From the NCBI GenBank assembly GCA_030612725.1, contig JAUWNJ010000037.1, positions 1 through 22,307 on the forward strand: a stretch of 22,307 nucleotides of DNA, read 5' to 3'. The stretch comes from Planctomycetales bacterium. GTDB taxonomy: Bacteria; Planctomycetota; Phycisphaerae; SM23-33. A program made the position numbers and the translations under genes. Numbering within the stretch: the first letter of the stretch is position 1; every line of letters starts with the position of its first letter. The notes below the pieces were generated by a model. That model searched no databases, had not been told where the DNA came from, and worked only from the letters and a program-made list of their open reading frames with translations. Below are positions 4,007-22,307 of this stretch, piece after piece.

Positions 4007-4801
4007 CTAGACGTAAATGATGTCCTGGATATTGTCGCTGCGAAGCCTCACGGTCTGACTGTTCACCCTCTCGACACCGGGCCTTGCGCAGACCTGGTCG
4101 GCGATGTCGGTATGGAAGAAGCGTTTTTCCAGAACGTAAGGCCCATCCCACTTCAGCGGCGCAACGGGACAATCCTTGTGCCTCTTTAATGCCCTGGCCG
4201 AGCCTTCTGCGATGCGCCTACGGGCCTCGAACGGCGAAAGCGAAATGGCCGAGTTGCGACTCAGCCCCTCCTTGACGCTGGCAGTGGTGATGCCCTCGAC
4301 TAATTCTTCAGCCTCGCGGCAGGCGGCATCGTCGCCGCTGAGGAATATCATCGGCAGGTCAACTGCGCCGATGTAAAGAGCGAATTGCGCGATCTCGCCG
4401 ATAAATCGGTCGTTCAGTTTATAGTATTCGATTTCCCTGCTGCTCTGAGTGTGGCTGAGATTGCCTCGCTCGACCCCCGCCATCGCATGTTGGCCGACCA
4501 TCATGCCCACGTCAAATGTCTTAATCACCTCGTTGCGTATCTGACGTGGAGCCAACGGTCTTCCGTGCAACAACCTCGCCTTGGGATGCAGGTCTTCGAA
4601 CCAGACCCCTCCGGGGCCGTGCCCGTCAACCACAAGTATGTCCGTAGCCCCCTCCTTCAATACGCCCTCCACTGCCGCATTGATCTCCGCCGTCAGCAGC
4701 CTCATGGAGTTTTCATAATACCGACCGTCCGAATACACATGATCTTTGAATGACACAACGCCGCTTACCCCTTCCAGATCCGTCATTATCAGAACTTTCA
4801 T
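4007..4801 (-). CDS. M55-family D-aminopeptidase (DppA-like)
   Basis: N-terminus MKVLIMTDLEGVSGV is characteristic of peptidase M55/DppA. Length 264 aa. Strong SD (AGGAAGGA) 5-8 nt upstream of the ATG. Confidence 0.8.
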   Translation of the reverse strand: MKVLIMTDLEGVSGVVSFKDHVYSDGRYYENSMRLLTAEINAAVEGVLKEGATDILVVDGHGPGGVWFEDLHPKARLLHGRPLAPRQIRNEVIKTFDVGMMVGQHAMAGVERGNLSHTQSSREIEYYKLNDRFIGEIAQFALYIGAVDLPMIFLSGDDAACREAEELVEGITTASVKEGLSRNSAISLSPFEARRRIAEGSARALKRHKDCPVAPLKWDGPYVLEKRFFHTDIADQVCARPGVERVNSQTVRLRSDNIQDIIYV

Positions 4802-4843: not shown

Positions 4844-5263
4844 CTAATGCTCATCGGCATGAGCGTTTTCCATGACCTTGGTGAACCATTCCGGCGCGCG
4901 GATGGGTTTGCCCGCCGGGTCGATGAAAGCGTGGACGGTGTATCCTTCAGCCACCGGCATGCCGCTGCCGGCGTGGACGATTTTCACGTCGCATCGGATG
5001 CGGGCCTTTCCGACCATCCGCCCGGTCGTGGTCGTCTCCAGCAGGTCGTCGTACCTCGCCCTGCCTCGGTATTTCACATACGATTCAACCACCGGAAGCA
5101 GCACGCCGCGTTCCTCCATCTCGGCATACGACGTGCCGGTCCGCCTGAAAAACTCCGTCCGCCCACACTCGAACCAGTCCAACGCACTCGAATTGGAATA
5201 CGTGCCCATCTGGTCCGTCTCGCTGTAACGAACGCGAAATTGTACGACGCTCTCAACCGACAT
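4844..5263 (-). CDS. Acyl-CoA thioesterase, 4HBT/YbgC-like hotdog fold
   Basis: FRVRYSETDQMGTYSNSSALDWFE... is a typical YbgC/4HBT N-terminal catalytic region. 139 aa. SD AAAGGTGA upstream. Co-directional with, and 42 bp upstream of, the DppA-like gene. Confidence 0.75.
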   Translation of the reverse strand: MSVESVVQFRVRYSETDQMGTYSNSSALDWFECGRTEFFRRTGTSYAEMEERGVLLPVVESYVKYRGRARYDDLLETTTTGRMVGKARIRCDVKIVHAGSGMPVAEGYTVHAFIDPAGKPIRAPEWFTKVMENAHADEH

Positions 5264-5378
5264 ATCGATTCACCTTTACCGGATGCGCATATTCCGTTCC
5301 AATAATCGTTCCATTTTATAATGGACTAAAAAACATCAGTCGCTATATCTTGTAGCAGTTCAAGACAGGACGCAAGAA

Positions 5379-5849
5379 ATGGATTCGCATCAGGTACTAC
5401 AAAAAGCGATCGAAAAGGTCGGCGCAAAGAAGGTGGCTGGGGATATGCGAGTGTCTTCGTCGCTGGTGTATAAATGGTGCCAACCCTCCGACGACAACAC
5501 AACGATTGAGCCGAGCGGTACGCGCAATCCGCTTGACCGCGTTGCAGCCTTGCTGGAAAGCACGAATGACGCGAACGTAGTACAATGGCTTTGCGAACGG
5601 GCGGGCGGATTTTTCGTTCACGATCCCGAGGTCAGCGACCGCCGCATCGATGCCGAATATATCGCCAACACGCAGCGGATAATTGAGGATTTTTCCCGGC
5701 TGCTTCGCGCTCTATCAGGCGCTATCGCCGACGACGGGAAAGTGGACGAAGACGAAGCGCGGAACATCCGAACGCAATGGCAAAGACTTAAACGATACGG
5801 CGAAGCCTTCGTCATCGCATGCGAACGAGGAATGTTCGCAGAAACCTGA
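5379..5849 (+). CDS. HTH DNA-binding protein resembling phage CII (186 CII/CP76-type) regulators
   Basis: N-terminal segment VGAKKVAGDMRVSSSLVYKWCQPSDDNT has the helix-turn-helix then W-x-x-P layout of CII-type regulators. 156 aa. AGGA 10 nt upstream of the ATG. The family assignment is from memory of the family, not a search. Confidence 0.5.
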   Translation: MDSHQVLQKAIEKVGAKKVAGDMRVSSSLVYKWCQPSDDNTTIEPSGTRNPLDRVAALLESTNDANVVQWLCERAGGFFVHDPEVSDRRIDAEYIANTQRIIEDFSRLLRALSGAIADDGKVDEDEARNIRTQWQRLKRYGEAFVIACERGMFAET

Positions 5850-16926: not shown

Positions 16927-17253
16927 ATGGCCCATTTTTCCTGTCCATATCTGCACGGCGAAGTTGAACTGACAGAAGAGCGAGAGTAACACATTGCCGA
17001 ACATCATCCTGATTTGTTTCCAGCACATCGGCACAGTATCATGGATACGTTAGCGGAACCGGATCAGGTTCGTCGCAGTTCACGAATGGGCGATGCAAGG
17101 TTATTTGCCCGCTGGTTCGACGATATAAAAAGCGGTAAGAACGTTGTTGTTGTAGTCGTCAGCGATCCCGGACCAAATGACCGGCATTGGGTCATTATCG
17201 CTTATATCGCCAGGAAACTGGCTGAAGGAGAAATAGAATGGCCGAAAAGATGA
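16927..17253 (+). pseudogene. DUF4258-like putative toxin gene with an in-frame TAA at 16987-16989. SD (AAGGA) + ATG at 16927; the ORF tool alternative is TTG 17014 with no SD.
   Basis: One-frame translation: MAHFSCPYLHGEVELTEERE*HIAEHHPDLFPAHRHSIMDTLAEPDQVRRSSRMGDARLFARWFDDIKSGKNVVVVVVSD... Protein-like sequence on both sides of the stop. Its stop overlaps the start of the downstream DUF2283 gene by 16 bp. DUF4258-family membership is recalled, not searched. Confidence 0.45.
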
Positions 17254-17477
17254 CTTTTCAATACGACCGTGAATCGGACATTCTCTACATTAACACACGT
17301 CCCCCATATGCGGAGCAGGAATCCGAGGAACTCGGAGATGAAATAATCGCGCGTATAAACCCTGCCACCGGTAAAATCGAGAATGTCGAAGTCCTCTTTT
17401 TCTCCACCCGACTTCTGCGAAAAGACATGTTTGAACTCCCCATAGTGGCCGATATGCACCTGGTTACAGAAAAATGA
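17238..17477 (+). CDS. DUF2283-family small protein, frequent partner of DUF4258 in TA-like pairs
   Basis: MAEKMTFQYDRESDILYINTRPPYAEQESEELGDEIIARINPATGKIENVEVLFFS matches the DUF2283 pattern (M..YD.E.D.LYI…ES.E…GK…E.L). AAGGAG SD 8 nt upstream. Confidence 0.65.
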   Translation: MAEKMTFQYDRESDILYINTRPPYAEQESEELGDEIIARINPATGKIENVEVLFFSTRLLRKDMFELPIVADMHLVTEK

Positions 17478-18727: not shown

Positions 18728-18748
18728 GCTGGGACGAAGTCCCACCTT
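18724..18748 (+). repeat. REP-like hairpin repeat, copy 4: gtaggctgggacgaagtcccacctt, overlapping the TAG stop of the URO-D-like gene
   Basis: Near-perfect hairpin: agg(c)tgggac / gtcccacct with a GAA triloop. Confidence 0.6.
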
Positions 18749-18830
18749 TGGCCCTGATTTCAATCGGCCGGAATGGAAAAAGGTTTCGACTACGCTAAAG
18801 CTCCGCCCGGAGCCTACGCCTTGCCCCTTT

Positions 18831-18863
18831 CAATCCGCAATCCACAATCTGCAATCCGCAATC
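18831..18863. repeat. Tandem heptamer (CAATCYR) x ~4.7: caatccg caatcca caatctg caatccg caatc
   Basis: Read directly. Located in the convergent intergenic region 4 bp 3' of the beta-propeller gene stop. Preceded at 18809-18827 by an inverted partial copy of the REP-like motif (ggagcctacgccttgcccc). Confidence 0.6.
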
Positions 18864-18867
18864 ATTA

Positions 18868-20511
18868 TTACCGGTTCACCACCGTATCCGGACCGGAAAG
18901 GTAAATATAGTATCCCGATCCGTGCTGGCTTCGGTCGTGGCGGTAGTGGAAGTCGTCGTATGGGCTGTAGCCACGGACGCCGCAGACCGTCGGATTGACC
19001 AGCACCATCAGGCGTTTCCGCTCGGTATCGACCGTAACGATATTCTCACGGAAATCGCCGATGACGTCGGCGCAGCATAGGTTCCGGCCATACTGACCGC
19101 CAGCGGGCATTTTTGCTTCCGGAAGGTCCTCGATCTCGCCGTCGCCCAGCAGGCGGACGATACGCTTGTTCTTCTTGCGGATGATAAAGACGACTTCCGC
19201 CCCGGCGTCCCAGTGAACGGGCACGAAGTTCTTCCGCTGCCAGTCCGTCAGGTTCAGCCAGTGCGTCCCATCCGGAAGGAAGATGGGATTGTGTTCCATT
19301 TCTCGCATTTTCGGGGCAATTTCTTCCTGGCCAAACTCGAACCTTGCATCCTCTGCCGTGTGGGGCTGGAGGCCCGGAACGCCGGCCGTGTGGCGAGCGA
19401 CCCAGCCGTAATGGGCGTGGCGGTACGGCTCCTTGAAGATAGTCTCACCCTTGTTGTCCACGAAGTACACGCCGGGATTATCGCGTTCGACGGCGTACCA
19501 GATTTGCAGCCCGTCGCGCGACGGGTCAATCTTTGCCGGCTTGGAGATGTCGGTATGACCGAACGGTTCAGCCTCCCAGCGGATGGTCCCGTCGCCGTTG
19601 TAGCAGATGCCGCCGCAGATGACCTCCTGCACGCCGTCGCCGTCGATGTCGCCGATGTCGAGGTTGTGCCCCGCCGGGCGGGCCTGCTTTACCTGCCAGG
19701 AAATCTCGCCACTCTCACCGGCAACAGCCGTCAAGACTTCGTCGCCGTAAGTCTCGTCCAGGAGCACCACAGACGCCGGTTCGTCCATTCCCCGCAACTG
19801 GCCGACGGTCATCATCTGACGTGGTTTCAGCCCCGGCCAGGGACGCTCCCACACGACCTGCCCGGTCTCGGCATCGACGGCGACCATTGTCTCATCCGGC
19901 CCGGTCTGTTCGTGCTCAAACGAACCTGAGGCGGTCTTGTCCCGCCGGAAAAGGACCTCTGTCCGCCCGTCGCCGTTGACGTCCCAGCATAGGAAAGGCA
20001 CGTGCAGCGTGCTGCCGTCCCACCCGCCGGCAGGAGAAAGTTTCGTGTCAATCTCCCAAAGGACTTTACCGTCGTGCCGGTACGCGAGCATCCAGATGGT
20101 CTTACCGCGAACAACCCGAAGGACGTAACCGATACGCCCGTCGTTGCACAACTCGCCCAGGGCAATTCCCATCTGCGGCGGCGCATCATCCGGATTCAGC
20201 GGGATATCCAATGCCAGCATGGTCGCCTCCGCACCGGCATCGACTTTGACAACCTCTGAAACCCCGCCGTCAGGCACAGTTATTCGATACTGGTATTCCC
20301 GATCCTGCGGCGCATCATCCAGAAAGTTGGTCGAATCGGTAATCGGCTGCGGCGTGATACGCTGCCAGTTGTCGCCTTCGCCGACCCGCCGCTCAACGTC
20401 AAACGGCGCAAGCGGATCATCGTCGGCCAGCAGCCGCCATGACAAAAACACCTTTCGCTCCCCTCGTGGAAGCCCAACCAGATACCGATCCTGCTGCCTG
20501 TCGGAAGACAT
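18868..20511 (-). CDS. Beta-propeller protein with FG-GAP-like repeats (rhamnogalacturonan-lyase family 11 / YesW-like). No signal peptide seen.
   Basis: 547 aa. Repeated Dx(D/N)GDG-type calcium-binding/FG-GAP-like motifs (DVNGDGRTEV, DIDGDGVQEV). Strong AAGGAG SD 6 nt upstream of ATG 20511. The family call is from recall and carries only moderate confidence. Confidence 0.5.
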   Translation of the reverse strand: MSSDRQQDRYLVGLPRGERKVFLSWRLLADDDPLAPFDVERRVGEGDNWQRITPQPITDSTNFLDDAPQDREYQYRITVPDGGVSEVVKVDAGAEATMLALDIPLNPDDAPPQMGIALGELCNDGRIGYVLRVVRGKTIWMLAYRHDGKVLWEIDTKLSPAGGWDGSTLHVPFLCWDVNGDGRTEVLFRRDKTASGSFEHEQTGPDETMVAVDAETGQVVWERPWPGLKPRQMMTVGQLRGMDEPASVVLLDETYGDEVLTAVAGESGEISWQVKQARPAGHNLDIGDIDGDGVQEVICGGICYNGDGTIRWEAEPFGHTDISKPAKIDPSRDGLQIWYAVERDNPGVYFVDNKGETIFKEPYRHAHYGWVARHTAGVPGLQPHTAEDARFEFGQEEIAPKMREMEHNPIFLPDGTHWLNLTDWQRKNFVPVHWDAGAEVVFIIRKKNKRIVRLLGDGEIEDLPEAKMPAGGQYGRNLCCADVIGDFRENIVTVDTERKRLMVLVNPTVCGVRGYSPYDDFHYRHDRSQHGSGYYIYLSGPDTVVNR

Positions 20512-20527
20512 GAACGGCTCCTTTCAA

Positions 20528-20612
20528 ATGTCAAAAATCTTACCCGGATTGAGGATATTGTTCGGGTCCCACGCCCGCTTGATGGCGCGCATCACGTCTA
20601 TCACCGGCTCGG
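20528..20612 (-). pseudogene. Relic 3' end of a GlcD-like FAD-oxidase gene (…AEPVIDVMRAIKRAWDPNNILNPGKIFDI*), a direct-repeat copy of 21404-21488
   Basis: ~85 bp, ~93% identical to the genuine 3' end of the GlcD-like CDS at 21399-. Six mismatches, all transitions. The protein sequence is conserved except the final V/I. The relic stop is followed 17 bp later by the SD+ATG of the beta-propeller gene. Confidence 0.6.
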
Positions 20613-20720
20613 CAGGTAGCGCCACCGCCAATCCAAACCCGAAACGACATGCAGAACCCACGGTGATACTCCCTTCGGAAATACGGTTTGGCATAGAATG
20701 AAACGAGGCGTAATCCCGAC

Positions 20721-20879
20721 TTACTGCTGATGGTGTTCCTTCTGGCGTTGAACAAGTTGTTCGTATTTCTTGTCCCAGTAGGCGAGCTGCTCTTCTGTGG
20801 TCATCCCACTAAGCCTTTCCTGAACCCGCTTAGCCCCCTGGCGTTTCATCTCGACACAATCAAATGTCTTCGTCTTCAT
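20721..20879 (-). CDS. Small (52 aa) ORF overlapping the 3' end of the PIN gene by 19 bp, candidate antitoxin partner in reversed gene order
   Basis: MKTKTFDCVEMKRQGAKRVQERLSGMTTEEQLAYWDKKYEQLVQRQKEHHQQ. Its ATG lies inside the PIN C-terminal codons in another frame. Below the ORF-track size cut-off. Charged, helical. Confidence 0.35.
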   Translation of the reverse strand: MKTKTFDCVEMKRQGAKRVQERLSGMTTEEQLAYWDKKYEQLVQRQKEHHQQ

Positions 20880-21336
20880 ATTCAATCACCTCCAGAGGGG
20901 AGTAGATAGCGATCTCCGAAAATCCTTTCTGCCTGTTCACTGCATTATACAAGGGGATCTTATCAAAGTGAACAATGTGTTTGAAATTCCAGCTTACTAT
21001 TATCGAACATTCGCTGACGGTGGTAATTGCAACATGTAAAGCATCATCAGAAGATTTGTCAGTCAGAATGCCGAAAGATAAATATGCAGCCTGCAATCGG
21101 GTCGCATCAGCAGTGATTCGCACAATATCGGCGCCGACGGTAACTTCGTCGAGAAACCGTTGTACCCGTTCAGGCGCAGCTACCAGTTCATCCTGAACCA
21201 GAGGTGAAAGAACCAAGCGAAAACGCCCCTCGAGAACCTGGCGAAAGAATTGTTGGCTGGGCCTGGAAAACTCTTCATCAAAAGCACCACCAAAAACAGA
21301 TGTATCCGCATAGATTCTTATCGGTTCCCATTTCAT
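20860..21336 (-). CDS. PIN-domain ribonuclease (VapC-like toxin)
   Basis: Acidic PIN residues in the expected places (IYADTSVFGG N-terminal Asp, DALHVA, SWNFKHIV C-terminal region). 158 aa. No upstream antitoxin ORF between 21337 and 21398. Confidence 0.75.
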   Translation of the reverse strand: MKWEPIRIYADTSVFGGAFDEEFSRPSQQFFRQVLEGRFRLVLSPLVQDELVAAPERVQRFLDEVTVGADIVRITADATRLQAAYLSFGILTDKSSDDALHVAITTVSECSIIVSWNFKHIVHFDKIPLYNAVNRQKGFSEIAIYSPLEVIEYEDEDI

Positions 21337-21398
21337 CAGATAACCCTTTACAGATCACTTTGCAACCAACCTACATAATAGATACCCATCTCGCCATT

Positions 21399-22307
21399 CT
21401 ACACGTCAAAAATCTTACCCGGATTGAGAATGTTGTTCGGATCCCACGCCCGCTTGATGGCACGCATCACGTCTATCACCGGTTCAGCCATTACCAGCGG
21501 GAGGTACTTTTTTCTCTTGTGCCCGATCCCGTGTTCGCCGCTTATCGTCCCGCCGAGACTCTTTGCCAATTCGTACAGTTCCTTGAGCACATCAGGCAGC
21601 GTTTTTTCCCATTTCTCCACAGACCAGTCCGGATTCATCACGATGCGCGTATGCATGTTCCCGTCCCCGGCGTGGCCGTAGCATGGAATCTGAACGCCAT
21701 ATTTGTCGGCTATCCGTCCCATCCCCGCCACAAGAGCGGGGATCTCGGCTATCGGAACCACCAAATCCTCACTGCTCTGATAGCGGCTTACCAAGCCATA
21801 TGCTTCACCGATATTCCGCCGGACCTTCCATATCCGTTCGCTCGTCGTGAAATTGTCAGCCACATAAACTTCTATCGCACCGGCTTCCAGGCACATCTCG
21901 CCGATGGCTTCATACTCACGCTCAACCTGCTCGGCGTCCGAACCGTCAACCGTTATCAGCAGCATCGCACCGGCCCGCTCGTAGGGAATCGTCTCGTTCA
22001 GATACTCGCACGACGCGCGAACAGAACTGCGGTCCATAAACTCAATGGCTGTCGGTATTATCCCACTGCCGGTCATTATATTAGGAACAGCCTCAATGGC
22101 CTGCTCCGCCGACTCAAACAAACAAAGCAAATCAACGCTGGCCGTCGGCAGCGGCATCAGTTTCAACGTTATCTTCGTGAATATACCAAGCGTGCCCTCC
22201 GAGCCGACCATCAGGCCAATCAGGTTGTAGCCCGTAACGTCCTTGACCAACTTGCCGCCGAGTTGAACAATCTCGCCCGTCGGCGTTACAACCTCCAGGC
22301 CGGTTAC
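21399..22307 (-). CDS. FAD-linked oxidase (GlcD / D-lactate dehydrogenase family), C-terminal ~300 aa. The 5' end lies beyond the window.
   Basis: FAD-oxidase C-terminal domain motifs (GEHGIGHKRKKYL, RAWDPNNILNPGKIF). The reading frame stays open to the window edge (…VTGLEVVTPTGEIVQLGGKLVKDVTGYNL…). The M the tool reports at 22250 is an internal TTG. Confidence 0.85.
   Translation of the reverse strand, partial: VTGLEVVTPTGEIVQLGGKLVKDVTGYNLIGLMVGSEGTLGIFTKITLKLMPLPTASVDLLCLFESAEQAIEAVPNIMTGSGIIPTAIEFMDRSSVRASCEYLNETIPYERAGAMLLITVDGSDAEQVEREYEAIGEMCLEAGAIEVYVADNFTTSERIWKVRRNIGEAYGLVSRYQSSEDLVVPIAEIPALVAGMGRIADKYGVQIPCYGHAGDGNMHTRIVMNPDWSVEKWEKTLPDVLKELYELAKSLGGTISGEHGIGHKRKKYLPLVMAEPVIDVMRAIKRAWDPNNILNPGKIFDV

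Follow-up and report, generated by a model that had tools for sequence, protein, structure and literature searches.

A glcD gene tail on both sides of a PIN-domain cassette: a possible scar of recombination between two alleles

How can the end of a protein-coding gene come to lie on both sides of a two-gene cassette when no enzyme that could have moved the cassette is in view? The question is raised by a stretch of 22,307 nucleotides (hereafter the window) of contig JAUWNJ010000037.1, from a Planctomycetales bacterium, in which the 3' end of a glcD-like oxidase gene is repeated beyond a gene for a PIN-domain protein and its small partner, directly ahead of a beta-propeller gene. The initial annotation answered it with the att-site logic of integrative islands: a two-gene toxin-antitoxin cassette would have entered the 3' end of the oxidase gene and brought a replacement end with it. 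We favour another answer, to which we give an even chance, namely that what we see was left behind when two diverged alleles of a single chromosomal locus, one bearing the cassette and one free of it, recombined. Two-allele recombination with one homologous and one illegitimate joint is the reading that needs the fewest events.

Two copies of the glcD tail

A repeat search of the window returned one outstanding family of direct repeats, at 20530-20613 and 21405-21488 (84 nucleotides (nt), 78/84 identical or 93%, spacing 875). The initial annotation had reported direct repeats of about 93% identity that differ by six transitions, and its account holds once the coordinates are corrected by 1-2 nt. 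The elements concerned are the following.

21399..22307, minus strand: GlcD-like FAD-linked oxidase gene, 3' part, 302 codons and stop; runs off the window end
21405-21488, minus strand: repeat copy B (alias U), promoter-proximal; the 28 codons preceding the last codon of the functional glcD
21381..21398, minus strand: native glcD 3' flank, from the stop codon to the cassette edge
20524-20613, minus strand: repeat copy A (alias D), the displaced, distal glcD tail; 28 codons (20530-20613) followed by ATT TGA

All six differences between the copies fall at third positions of one codon phase. Both copies translate to the same 28 residues, AEPVIDVMRAIKRAWDPNNILNPGKIFD, as had been noted, and the dN/dS comparison then recommended gives, by the Nei-Gojobori method, a synonymous divergence (dS) of 0.43 and a nonsynonymous divergence (dN) of 0. 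The match is far beyond chance: its local-alignment score is 69, while pairing mismatched flanks from other loci gives a cross-locus null with a mean of 9.5 and a 99th percentile of 12.5.

Copy B continues into GTG TAG (21404-21399), the true end of a gene with matches to Pfam FAD-oxidase_C (1e-60) and to TIGR00387 glcD (3e-82, below the cut-off of that model), which bears out its initial identification as the real oxidase C-terminus. The product shares 96% amino acid (aa) identity with that of a 476-aa gene in a related locus, L030, itself downstream of two electron transfer flavoprotein (ETF) genes. Past the stop codon, the native flank AATGGCGAGATGGG matches 11/14 positions of the flank CATGGAAAGATGGGACTTCGTCCC that follows glcD in L115, a relative without the cassette. 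Since the two flanks agree, copy B and the following 14-17 nt can be taken as the contiguous, genuine end of glcD. The window flank ends within a hairpin motif that is intact in L115. That motif, GGGACTTCGTCCC with conserved flanks AAGGTGGGACTTCGTCCCAGCC, adjoins the stop codon of the URO-D gene (window ~18728-18750) and stands directly after glcD in L115 (~2490-2510); another copy is interrupted by the left cassette edge at 21381. The motif may represent a terminator common to these sites or an element of the repetitive extragenic palindromic (REP) type.

Copy A differs from copy B in its last codon, its stop codon and its flank. Its stop codon is followed immediately by AAGGAG and, 12 nt past the stop, by the ATG of the beta-propeller gene, a distance first given as 17 bp. 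Identity between the copies ends at 20613/20614 on one side and after GAC on the other, and no homology extends past the 84 nt in the window; the homology running on past the repeat on both sides that marks a tandem duplication is absent. The 791 nt between the copies, said at first to hold only a PIN gene and a small open reading frame (ORF), do contain both, but also the head of a DUF2330-like gene (20675-20614), recognized with z = 12. GC content is 0.40-0.50 across the cassette and PIN region, against 0.55-0.65 in the flanks.

A discrete two-gene cassette

The DNA between the native flank and the spacer comprises three overlapping features.

20732..21380, minus strand: mobile cassette core, 649 nt; a 44-nt leader, the PIN gene and the small ORF up to its last few codons
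20860..21336, minus strand: PIN-domain protein of 158 aa, putative VapC-like toxin by Pfam PIN match and predicted fold
20721..20879, minus strand: small ORF that starts with the ATG at 20879 and encodes 52 aa, with Shine-Dalgarno (SD) sequence GGAGGTGA and stop codon at 20721-20723; putative partner or antitoxin

The core is 96% identical to positions 54-702 of L032, an ENA contig, and homology is lost sharply at both edges. Upstream of the core, L032 carries a gene unrelated to glcD, and the shared segment contains neither copy of the glcD repeat. This comparison supports the view that the PIN gene and the small ORF form a discrete, mobile two-gene unit. The cassette of the initial annotation thereby survives as a unit; the att-site logic attached to it finds no support, as the flanking repeats of the family have no shared core and range from 28 to 277 nt. 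On the right, the core gives out a few codons before the small ORF ends, which fits a protein family whose N-terminal ~45 aa are conserved and whose C-terminal tail is variable.

Several features relate the larger protein to VapC. It matches Pfam PIN just above the cut-off (3.5e-5; 24.8 bits for a cut-off of 23.6), its AlphaFold model has a predicted local distance difference test score (pLDDT) of 90, and the top PDB matches of that model in Foldseek are VapC4, VapC2, VapC20 and Shigella VapC (E-values of 3e-6 to 1e-3, template modelling scores of ~0.55-0.6). Across 33 sequences, residues D11, E50 and D98 never vary; the usual fourth acidic position of the fold is occupied here by N117/H120 in a WNFxH motif, and a fourth acidic residue is not evident. 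We detected 2624 homologues, hundreds of them at ~60% identity and spanning phyla. A sequence search against solved PDB structures gave no match, any solved VapC included, and exact-protein look-ups with the window PIN and beta-propeller proteins returned nothing. PADLOC and PHROGs had no match to the PIN protein or the small protein apart from one PADLOC hit for PIN at chance level (E = 0.03).

In the window, the small ORF overlaps the 3' end of the PIN gene by 20 nt. A homologue lies downstream of the PIN gene in ~60 of 80 loci retrieved from JGI metagenomes with a PIN alignment, mostly with an overlap of 10-19 nt. No family in Pfam, NCBIfam, PADLOC or PHROGs matched the small protein. In L075 and L077, the conserved domain of the small ORF is present twice in tandem within the ORF downstream of the PIN gene. 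Fold, size, coupling and distribution together suggest that the pair could be a toxin-antitoxin system with the toxin gene first.

We found no terminal inverted repeats at 21380/20732 in the repeat search of the window, and no recombinase or transposase gene either in the 22.3-kb window (Pfam on its ORFs) or in 12.9 kb of L030 (precomputed Pfam annotations); the initial remark that no integrase was in view thus extends to a relative. Members of the family are rare on plasmids (three Leptospira plasmids, ~41% identity) and in viral contigs (six distant matches), and these searches pointed to no obvious vehicle. No Rfam family was found. A consensus scan detected neither a promoter in the leader of the cassette nor a terminator in the spacer; the few hits that it gave are within the PIN gene, and shuffled sequence gives as many.

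An illegitimate joint next to the distal copy

What separates the cassette from the beta-propeller gene? Read along the minus strand, the interval and its surroundings comprise these features.

20676..20731, minus strand: non-coding spacer, with weak homology over its first ~45 nt to those of L116/L033 and L030
20614..20675, minus strand: head of a DUF2330-like gene; SD AAGGGAG, seven nucleotides (N7), GTG start (20661-20659) and 16 signal-peptide-like codons
20524-20694, minus strand: 56-codon ORF whose C-terminal half repeats the oxidase C-terminus
20524-20661, minus strand: chimeric 45-codon ORF with its own SD and GTG, ending 12 nt before the beta-propeller ATG
18868..20511, minus strand: RGL11-like beta-propeller gene, its SD AAGGAG abutting the copy A stop
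18830..18867, minus strand: intergenic stretch after the beta-propeller gene, with a DUF2330 ribosome-binding site (RBS) remnant and a heptamer array

Window positions 20675-20620 are identical at 41/56 positions (73%) to the RBS, start and first codons of the DUF2330 gene of L116. The alignment scores 24, with z = 12 relative to shuffled sequences, and is the top match among all fetched loci. The DUF2330-head codons, VGSACRFGFGLAVALP, continue at 20614/20613, without a change of frame, into the glcD tail of 28 codons, and Pfam FAD-oxidase_C recognizes the resulting 45-aa product (5e-8). By its sequence, then, the ORF between the cassette and the beta-propeller gene is chimeric, with its head from DUF2330 and its tail from GlcD, and 20613/20614 is the illegitimate joint of two gene fragments. 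An integrating element should have left a clean att boundary; here, instead, copy A is fused at its inner edge to an unrelated gene's 5' end. The idea that the segment beside copy A is decayed glcD found no support, either from the Pfam alignment limits or by eye. Through the chimeric ORF, translation of the beta-propeller gene might stay coupled to that of an ORF upstream, which is also the presumed state of its native operon.

The spacer itself is ~60-65% identical to those of L116/L033 and L030, as judged by eye, and had no other match. Because it is this spacer, and not the beta-propeller/DUF2330 intergenic stretch, that precedes the DUF2330 head of the window, the resident chromosome probably had DUF2330 directly after the cassette. 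The beta-propeller gene (Pfam RGL11_C, 4e-19, with RGI_lyase and FG-GAP) shares 91% aa identity with that of L116. Unlike in L116, no DUF2330 gene follows it in the window, but a remnant of the DUF2330 RBS does (GATTGCGGATTGAAAGGGGCA, versus GATTGCGGATCAAAAGGAGCA in L116), so this stretch is present twice in the window. Just past the beta-propeller stop, a tandem array of the heptamer CAATCCG (gene strand GATTGCG), 4.7 units long, spans 18831-18863; L116 has a single unit.

The locus in relatives

The gene order around the cassette differs from one relative to the next. L030, a metagenome-assembled genome (MAG) from NCBI, has two ETF genes, glcD (96% aa identity), the cassette (PIN 89%), a 58-nt spacer, a glcD tail and a zinc alcohol dehydrogenase (ADH) gene; only the final ~42 nt of glcD are present in that distal tail, which ends GTT TGA. 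L116 and L033 have glcD (94%), the cassette (87%), a homologous spacer, a 42-nt tail, the beta-propeller gene (91%), DUF2330 and, in convergent orientation, a URO-D gene. Their tail begins at the same base as that of L030 and ends ATT TGA. The right side of the cassette thus varies, with an 84-nt or a 42-nt distal copy followed by a beta-propeller or an ADH gene. On the left, the junction between the glcD flank and the cassette can be aligned in the window, L116/L033 and L030, and on that alignment it is common to all of them by descent.

The initial annotation took the cassette for the newcomer. The shared left junction, together with the match between the copy B flank and cassette-free L115, speaks against that direction and suggests the reverse: the cassette is probably the old resident, with copy A and the beta-propeller gene as newcomers.

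L115, with a GlcD of 90% identity, has a single tail and TAG followed by the flank given above, and then a different downstream gene. L024 carries glcD (84%) and the beta-propeller gene (77%) without the cassette and, as far as that goes, provides the empty site that had been called for. We nevertheless dropped it as a clean one: its 111-nt intergenic region aligns to the spacer end and 42-nt tail of L030 and of the window (z = 4.3 and 3.7), and so holds a decayed second tail (z ~4) and a piece of spacer. L024 is either the scar of a cassette loss or a pre-existing two-tail state. In L124 (GlcD 74%, PIN 60%), glcD is followed by a solo small-ORF homologue, REP-like sequence, a full cassette and a GH10 gene. 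The solo homologue (61 aa; L124 4490-5000) has an ATG that overlaps the glcD stop, and ~325 nt of GC-rich palindromic repeats (GGCCCCGAAGGGG...) lie between it and the complete cassette; two cassette generations appear to be present at one site. As L124 also carries members of the family at this place, the 3' side of this glcD operon seems to be a repeated host of such cassettes, and the sequence past the cassette is different in every lineage. The contig of L114 (JAIOTN010000112.1), with a glcD of 90% identity, ends one base past the glcD stop, and the assembly could have broken there because the sequence beyond the gene is variable or repeated.

Age and origin of the distal copy

Is copy A simply an old duplicate of the glcD tail upstream of it? 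Between the window and L116, segments that are presumably neutral have diverged considerably (spacer ~60-65% identity, DUF2330 head 73%). Copy A has no change at all at non-third codon positions, and five of its six variant bases are states seen in functional orthologues. Copy B, for its part, has GAA, CGT and GAT in common with the gene of L033/L116, and these changes are therefore older than the split between the window and L116. As the changes in copy B predate that split while copy A is undecayed and orthologue-like, copy A cannot, on these comparisons, have been duplicated from the glcD tail of the window itself and have drifted since then. Its state is that expected of a recently imported tail from a third functional glcD allele, unless it has been protected by some means. 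The origin of the two copies in two different functional alleles is thus supported, in agreement with the diverged donor that had been one of two possibilities raised at first; dN = 0 and the allele-like variants both fit.

Gene-wide divergence between the window and L116 amounts to a dS of 0.28 for glcD, 0.44 for PIN, 0.45 for the beta-propeller gene and 0.28 for URO-D. A mosaic locus, considered from the dS of short segments, was not upheld with full-length genes. What remains of that comparison is a reversed ranking of PIN and glcD relative to L030, which is weak. At two sites, the two copies co-vary within genomes: AAT and GGT in the window, AAC and GG[G/A] in L116.

Flanking repeats across the cassette family

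Is the window an isolated case? For every fetched locus of the family, we aligned the 500 nt upstream of the PIN gene to the 500 nt that follow the small ORF. Of 64 independent JGI loci, 9 (about one in seven) have direct repeats of 28-277 nt on the two sides of the cassette; inverted repeats flank it in 0/64. With flanks of 300 nt, 10/55 real sites exceed the score threshold, compared with 5/246 shifted control sites on the same contigs (Fisher p = 3e-5). The nine loci are listed here with the length of the flanking repeat.

L072: 277 nt
L084: 107 nt, 105/107 identity
L039: 103 nt, near-identical
L101: 84 nt
L047: 59 nt
L082: 41 nt
L052: 33 nt
L080: 28 nt
L074: 28 nt

The duplicated targets vary: in one case a DUF6807 gene is duplicated at its 3' end, in another a PDDEXK_3 gene at its 5' end together with its promoter, and in a third the target is intergenic and contains a terminator. 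Among the flanking repeats of the ten loci, the window included, there is no common motif or core; each repeat is specific to its locus. Neighbours of the repeat-flanked loci are ordinary chromosomal genes, and the nearest large ORFs of L039, L074, L080, L084 and L101 include no mobility gene.

Two of these loci show further detail. In L074, where the repeat ends exactly at a stop codon, the small ORF (4440-4619) reads in frame into the duplicated DUF6807 tail (...RKQR followed by PPKAEWVK and stop, for PPKAEWAK and stop in the gene), and its C-terminus is therefore encoded by duplicated target DNA. In L084, a spacer of 153 nt (4610-4762) separates the small ORF from the distal repeat; by eye it appears to contain an older, diverged copy of the same kind of target, GCGTGAGAT...AAGGAGACGAAGAATG, resembling the promoter and start of a PDDEXK_3 gene, and parts of the repeat unit recur at 5207-5276.

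Recombination between two alleles and the alternatives

The history that we favour would involve two alleles. One would have a putatively addictive cassette of PIN gene and small ORF just downstream of glcD, with the resident order glcD, cassette, spacer, DUF2330, URO-D. The other would have no cassette, but glcD, 12 nt and the beta-propeller gene. DNA arriving from a relative would have extended from the glcD tail and the beta-propeller gene through to URO-D. At its right end it would have entered by homologous crossover. At its left end the joint would be illegitimate, linking in the window codon 16 of DUF2330 to the 84th base before the last glcD codon and, in the lineage of L116, L030 and L024, the spacer to glcD at -42. 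Had the exchange been a clean double crossover with glcD used on the left, the cassette would be deleted, and such recombinants would presumably be lost by post-segregational killing; the survivors would keep the cassette together with a second short glcD tail. Transfer in the reverse direction could give the same structure, the cassette then arriving with a glcD tail by a single circle crossover or by homology-facilitated illegitimate recombination.

Several observations weigh against this history. Protein searches with GlcD and the beta-propeller protein, followed by context look-ups, turned up no cassette-free allele in which a glcD ending ...KIFDI directly precedes the beta-propeller gene; in the closest GlcD relatives the protein ends in FDV or FDM and the neighbouring genes are different. 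Nor was the postulated resident order of cassette, spacer and DUF2330 found among the relatives searched. A single junction between spacer and 42-nt tail is common to L116, L030 and L024, though the window is closest to L116 by glcD, so that the history needs extra recombination. The dS values of glcD, PIN, beta-propeller and URO-D genes do not differ significantly, and mosaicism of the locus is not demonstrated. The main caveat comes from the two co-varying sites, which hint at gene conversion acting on the shared 42 nt, a process able to mimic a fresh import. Toxin-first gene order is atypical for VapBC, and toxicity, neutralisation and addiction are presumed from sequence. Finally, every sequence compared comes from metagenome assemblies.

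Could the second tail have arisen within the genome? A tandem duplication or re-integrated circle of ~1.8 kb (glcD tail, beta-propeller gene, DUF2330 head), or a second glcD paralogue, might have been trimmed by deletions, with gene conversion keeping the distal tail similar to the real one and the cassette incidental to the repeat. We hold this to be unlikely, although several observations favour it: the co-variation just mentioned, the DUF2330 RBS region found twice, two tails without a cassette in L024, and GlcD paralogues that often share a contig in this group. The initial annotation regarded a larger duplication as fatal to its insertion model. None is visible as homology past the 84 nt, yet the order of DUF2330 head, glcD tail and beta-propeller gene in the window is a head-to-tail permutation of the L116 order of glcD tail, beta-propeller gene and DUF2330, so a larger duplication or a circular intermediate is possible. 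Such a history takes three or more events, sits poorly with homology confined to 84 nt and leaves the enrichment of direct repeats around the cassette family unexplained. It is also at odds with the left half of copy A, which differs where copy B changed before the split from L116 and yet lacks neutral decay. A small integrative element with a replacement glcD 3' end in its attP, its recombinase lost or acting in trans (a remnant resembling a cis-mobilizable element, or CIME), is less probable still. Direct repeats around foreign, lower-GC DNA at the 3' end of an intact gene are what it predicts, and L116 and L030, with the same 42-nt distal copy and spacer ahead of different downstream genes, look as one element in two hosts would. 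However, no integrase is encoded in 22 kb here or 13 kb of L030 (a recombinase in trans is conceivable), the nine other loci have no common repeat core and differ in repeat length (28-277 nt), and their targets include gene 5' ends and intergenic DNA. Moreover, the inner edge of copy A is fused to a DUF2330 fragment instead of an element end, and the core common with L032 excludes both repeats.

To a true long target-site duplication we assign the same low probability as to the integrative element. Here a double-strand break with widely staggered ends, or a replication fork that had collapsed, would have received the cassette DNA by ligation, and fill-in would have duplicated 28-277 nt of target. 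The near-identical repeats of L084 and L039, the variable lengths and the lack of recombinase genes all match the class described for restriction-modification systems. In the window, though, the insert is not in contact with the repeat at either edge (20 nt of native flank intervene to the left and 118 nt to the right), the copies disagree in last codon, stop codon and flank, and the synonymous differences shared with orthologues indicate that they were not identical at birth; the L074 repeat, too, ends exactly at a stop codon. A further reading, in which the pair is an autonomous, recombinase-free element, its PIN nuclease itself breaking DNA or processing intermediates so as to insert with long, variable target duplications, is very improbable in our view; it draws on a fold that we take to be related to flap and 5' nucleases. 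If true, it would make the pair a toxin-antitoxin module that mobilises itself, and DNA transposition would have a new mechanism. Least credible is a chimera assembled from co-occurring strains. The contig is indeed metagenome-derived, and the L114 contig breaks at the glcD stop; but the junction sequences share no k-mer able to cause a mis-join, the fusion is in frame with its RBS retained, and comparable structures turned up independently in assemblies from four sources, NCBI MAGs, ENA, Logan and JGI.

Other features of the window

A second toxin-antitoxin-like pair is present at 16927-17477 on the plus strand. Its toxin-like ORF has an ATG at 16927 and an in-frame TAA at 16987-16989, and continues to 17253; the match to PBECR2 is weak and sub-threshold (E = 0.08). 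This ORF overlaps a DUF2283 ORF at 17238-17477 (Pfam 1e-8). No flanking repeats surround the pair (17014-17477). At 5379-5849, also on the plus strand, a 156-aa ORF with a weak match to a phage regulatory protein of the CII/CP76 type (E = 1e-5, just below the cut-off) is located amid housekeeping genes.

Comparison with known systems

Toxin-antitoxin modules are among the most horizontally mobile prokaryotic genes, mostly without a mobility gene of their own, and how they move and persist is still argued. The window pair resembles VapBC in that the PIN fold is nearest to VapC structures, acidic residues are conserved, the small partner is apparently co-translated and the distribution is wide and patchy. 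It departs from VapBC in its partner, which lies downstream and overlaps the end of the PIN gene where VapBC has an upstream DNA-binding VapB, and which matches no known antitoxin family, as well as in the fourth acidic residue. Transposons, insertion sequences and miniature inverted-repeat transposable elements have terminal inverted repeats and short target duplications of fixed size, whereas the repeats here are 28-277 nt long.

Integrative islands, integrative mobilizable elements and CIMEs can target the 3' ends of protein genes and provide a replacement end, as streptococcal elements do in fda, rpsI and guaA. The window is similar in having a gene tail duplicated as a direct repeat around foreign DNA, with the target gene intact. 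It differs, as does the family, in having neither a cognate tyrosine or serine recombinase nor a conserved att core with precise ends; repeat length is variable and the inner boundary irregular. In homology-facilitated illegitimate recombination, reportedly described for natural transformation by de Vries and Wackernagel and by Prudhomme and colleagues in 2002, one end is anchored by homology and the other joined non-homologously, as at 20613/20614. That process usually deletes recipient DNA, and a short duplication of a gene tail on the anchor side is not typical of it.

What would recombination between two alleles imply? As in restriction-modification systems, the other classic addiction modules, the footprint of the family consists of reproducible flank duplications that are long, direct and specific to each locus. 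The window is unusually readable in this respect, with distinguishable allele copies, an in-frame fusion joint and alternative versions of the locus in relatives. If the reading is true, addiction would filter the products of recombination beyond stabilising DNA; gene-tail duplications, chimeric mini-ORFs and synteny breaks would accumulate beside such cassettes, and a simple sequence signature would be at hand for finding further selfish cassettes. The locus would then offer a lead on how selfish modules spread or resist removal.

The closest parallel is the 'insertion with long target duplication', as it was named for restriction-modification complexes by Kobayashi and colleagues (2000, Gene 259:99; Furuta, Abe & Kobayashi 2010, PMC2853133; PMC3874152). 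Its features are direct repeats of more than 30 bp, variable length, the absence of other mobile-element genes and an enrichment of flanking repeats (PMC2853133). We found no description of this signature for toxin-antitoxin modules in the literature searched. According to the account of Handa et al. (2001) given in PMC3874152, chromosomal restriction-modification systems resist allelic replacement through post-segregational killing, and the survivors are rearranged. Carried over from that summary, such resistance predicts that replacement by cassette-free DNA is counter-selected and that survivors keep the module with duplicated flanks; it was, in the same account, shown experimentally in E. 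coli, whereas the case for the window is drawn from natural sequence. The likeness covers a putative addiction-type pair, no mobility gene in or beside the insert, and direct repeats of local sequence longer than 30 bp (84 nt here), varying in length from locus to locus and enriched around the family. The differences are a cargo of PIN gene and small ORF, one edge fused to a fragment of another gene, and copies that are distinguishable, non-identical alleles where a single duplicated target would give identical ones. The non-identical alleles and the fused edge therefore argue for homologous plus illegitimate recombination rather than the duplication of a single target.

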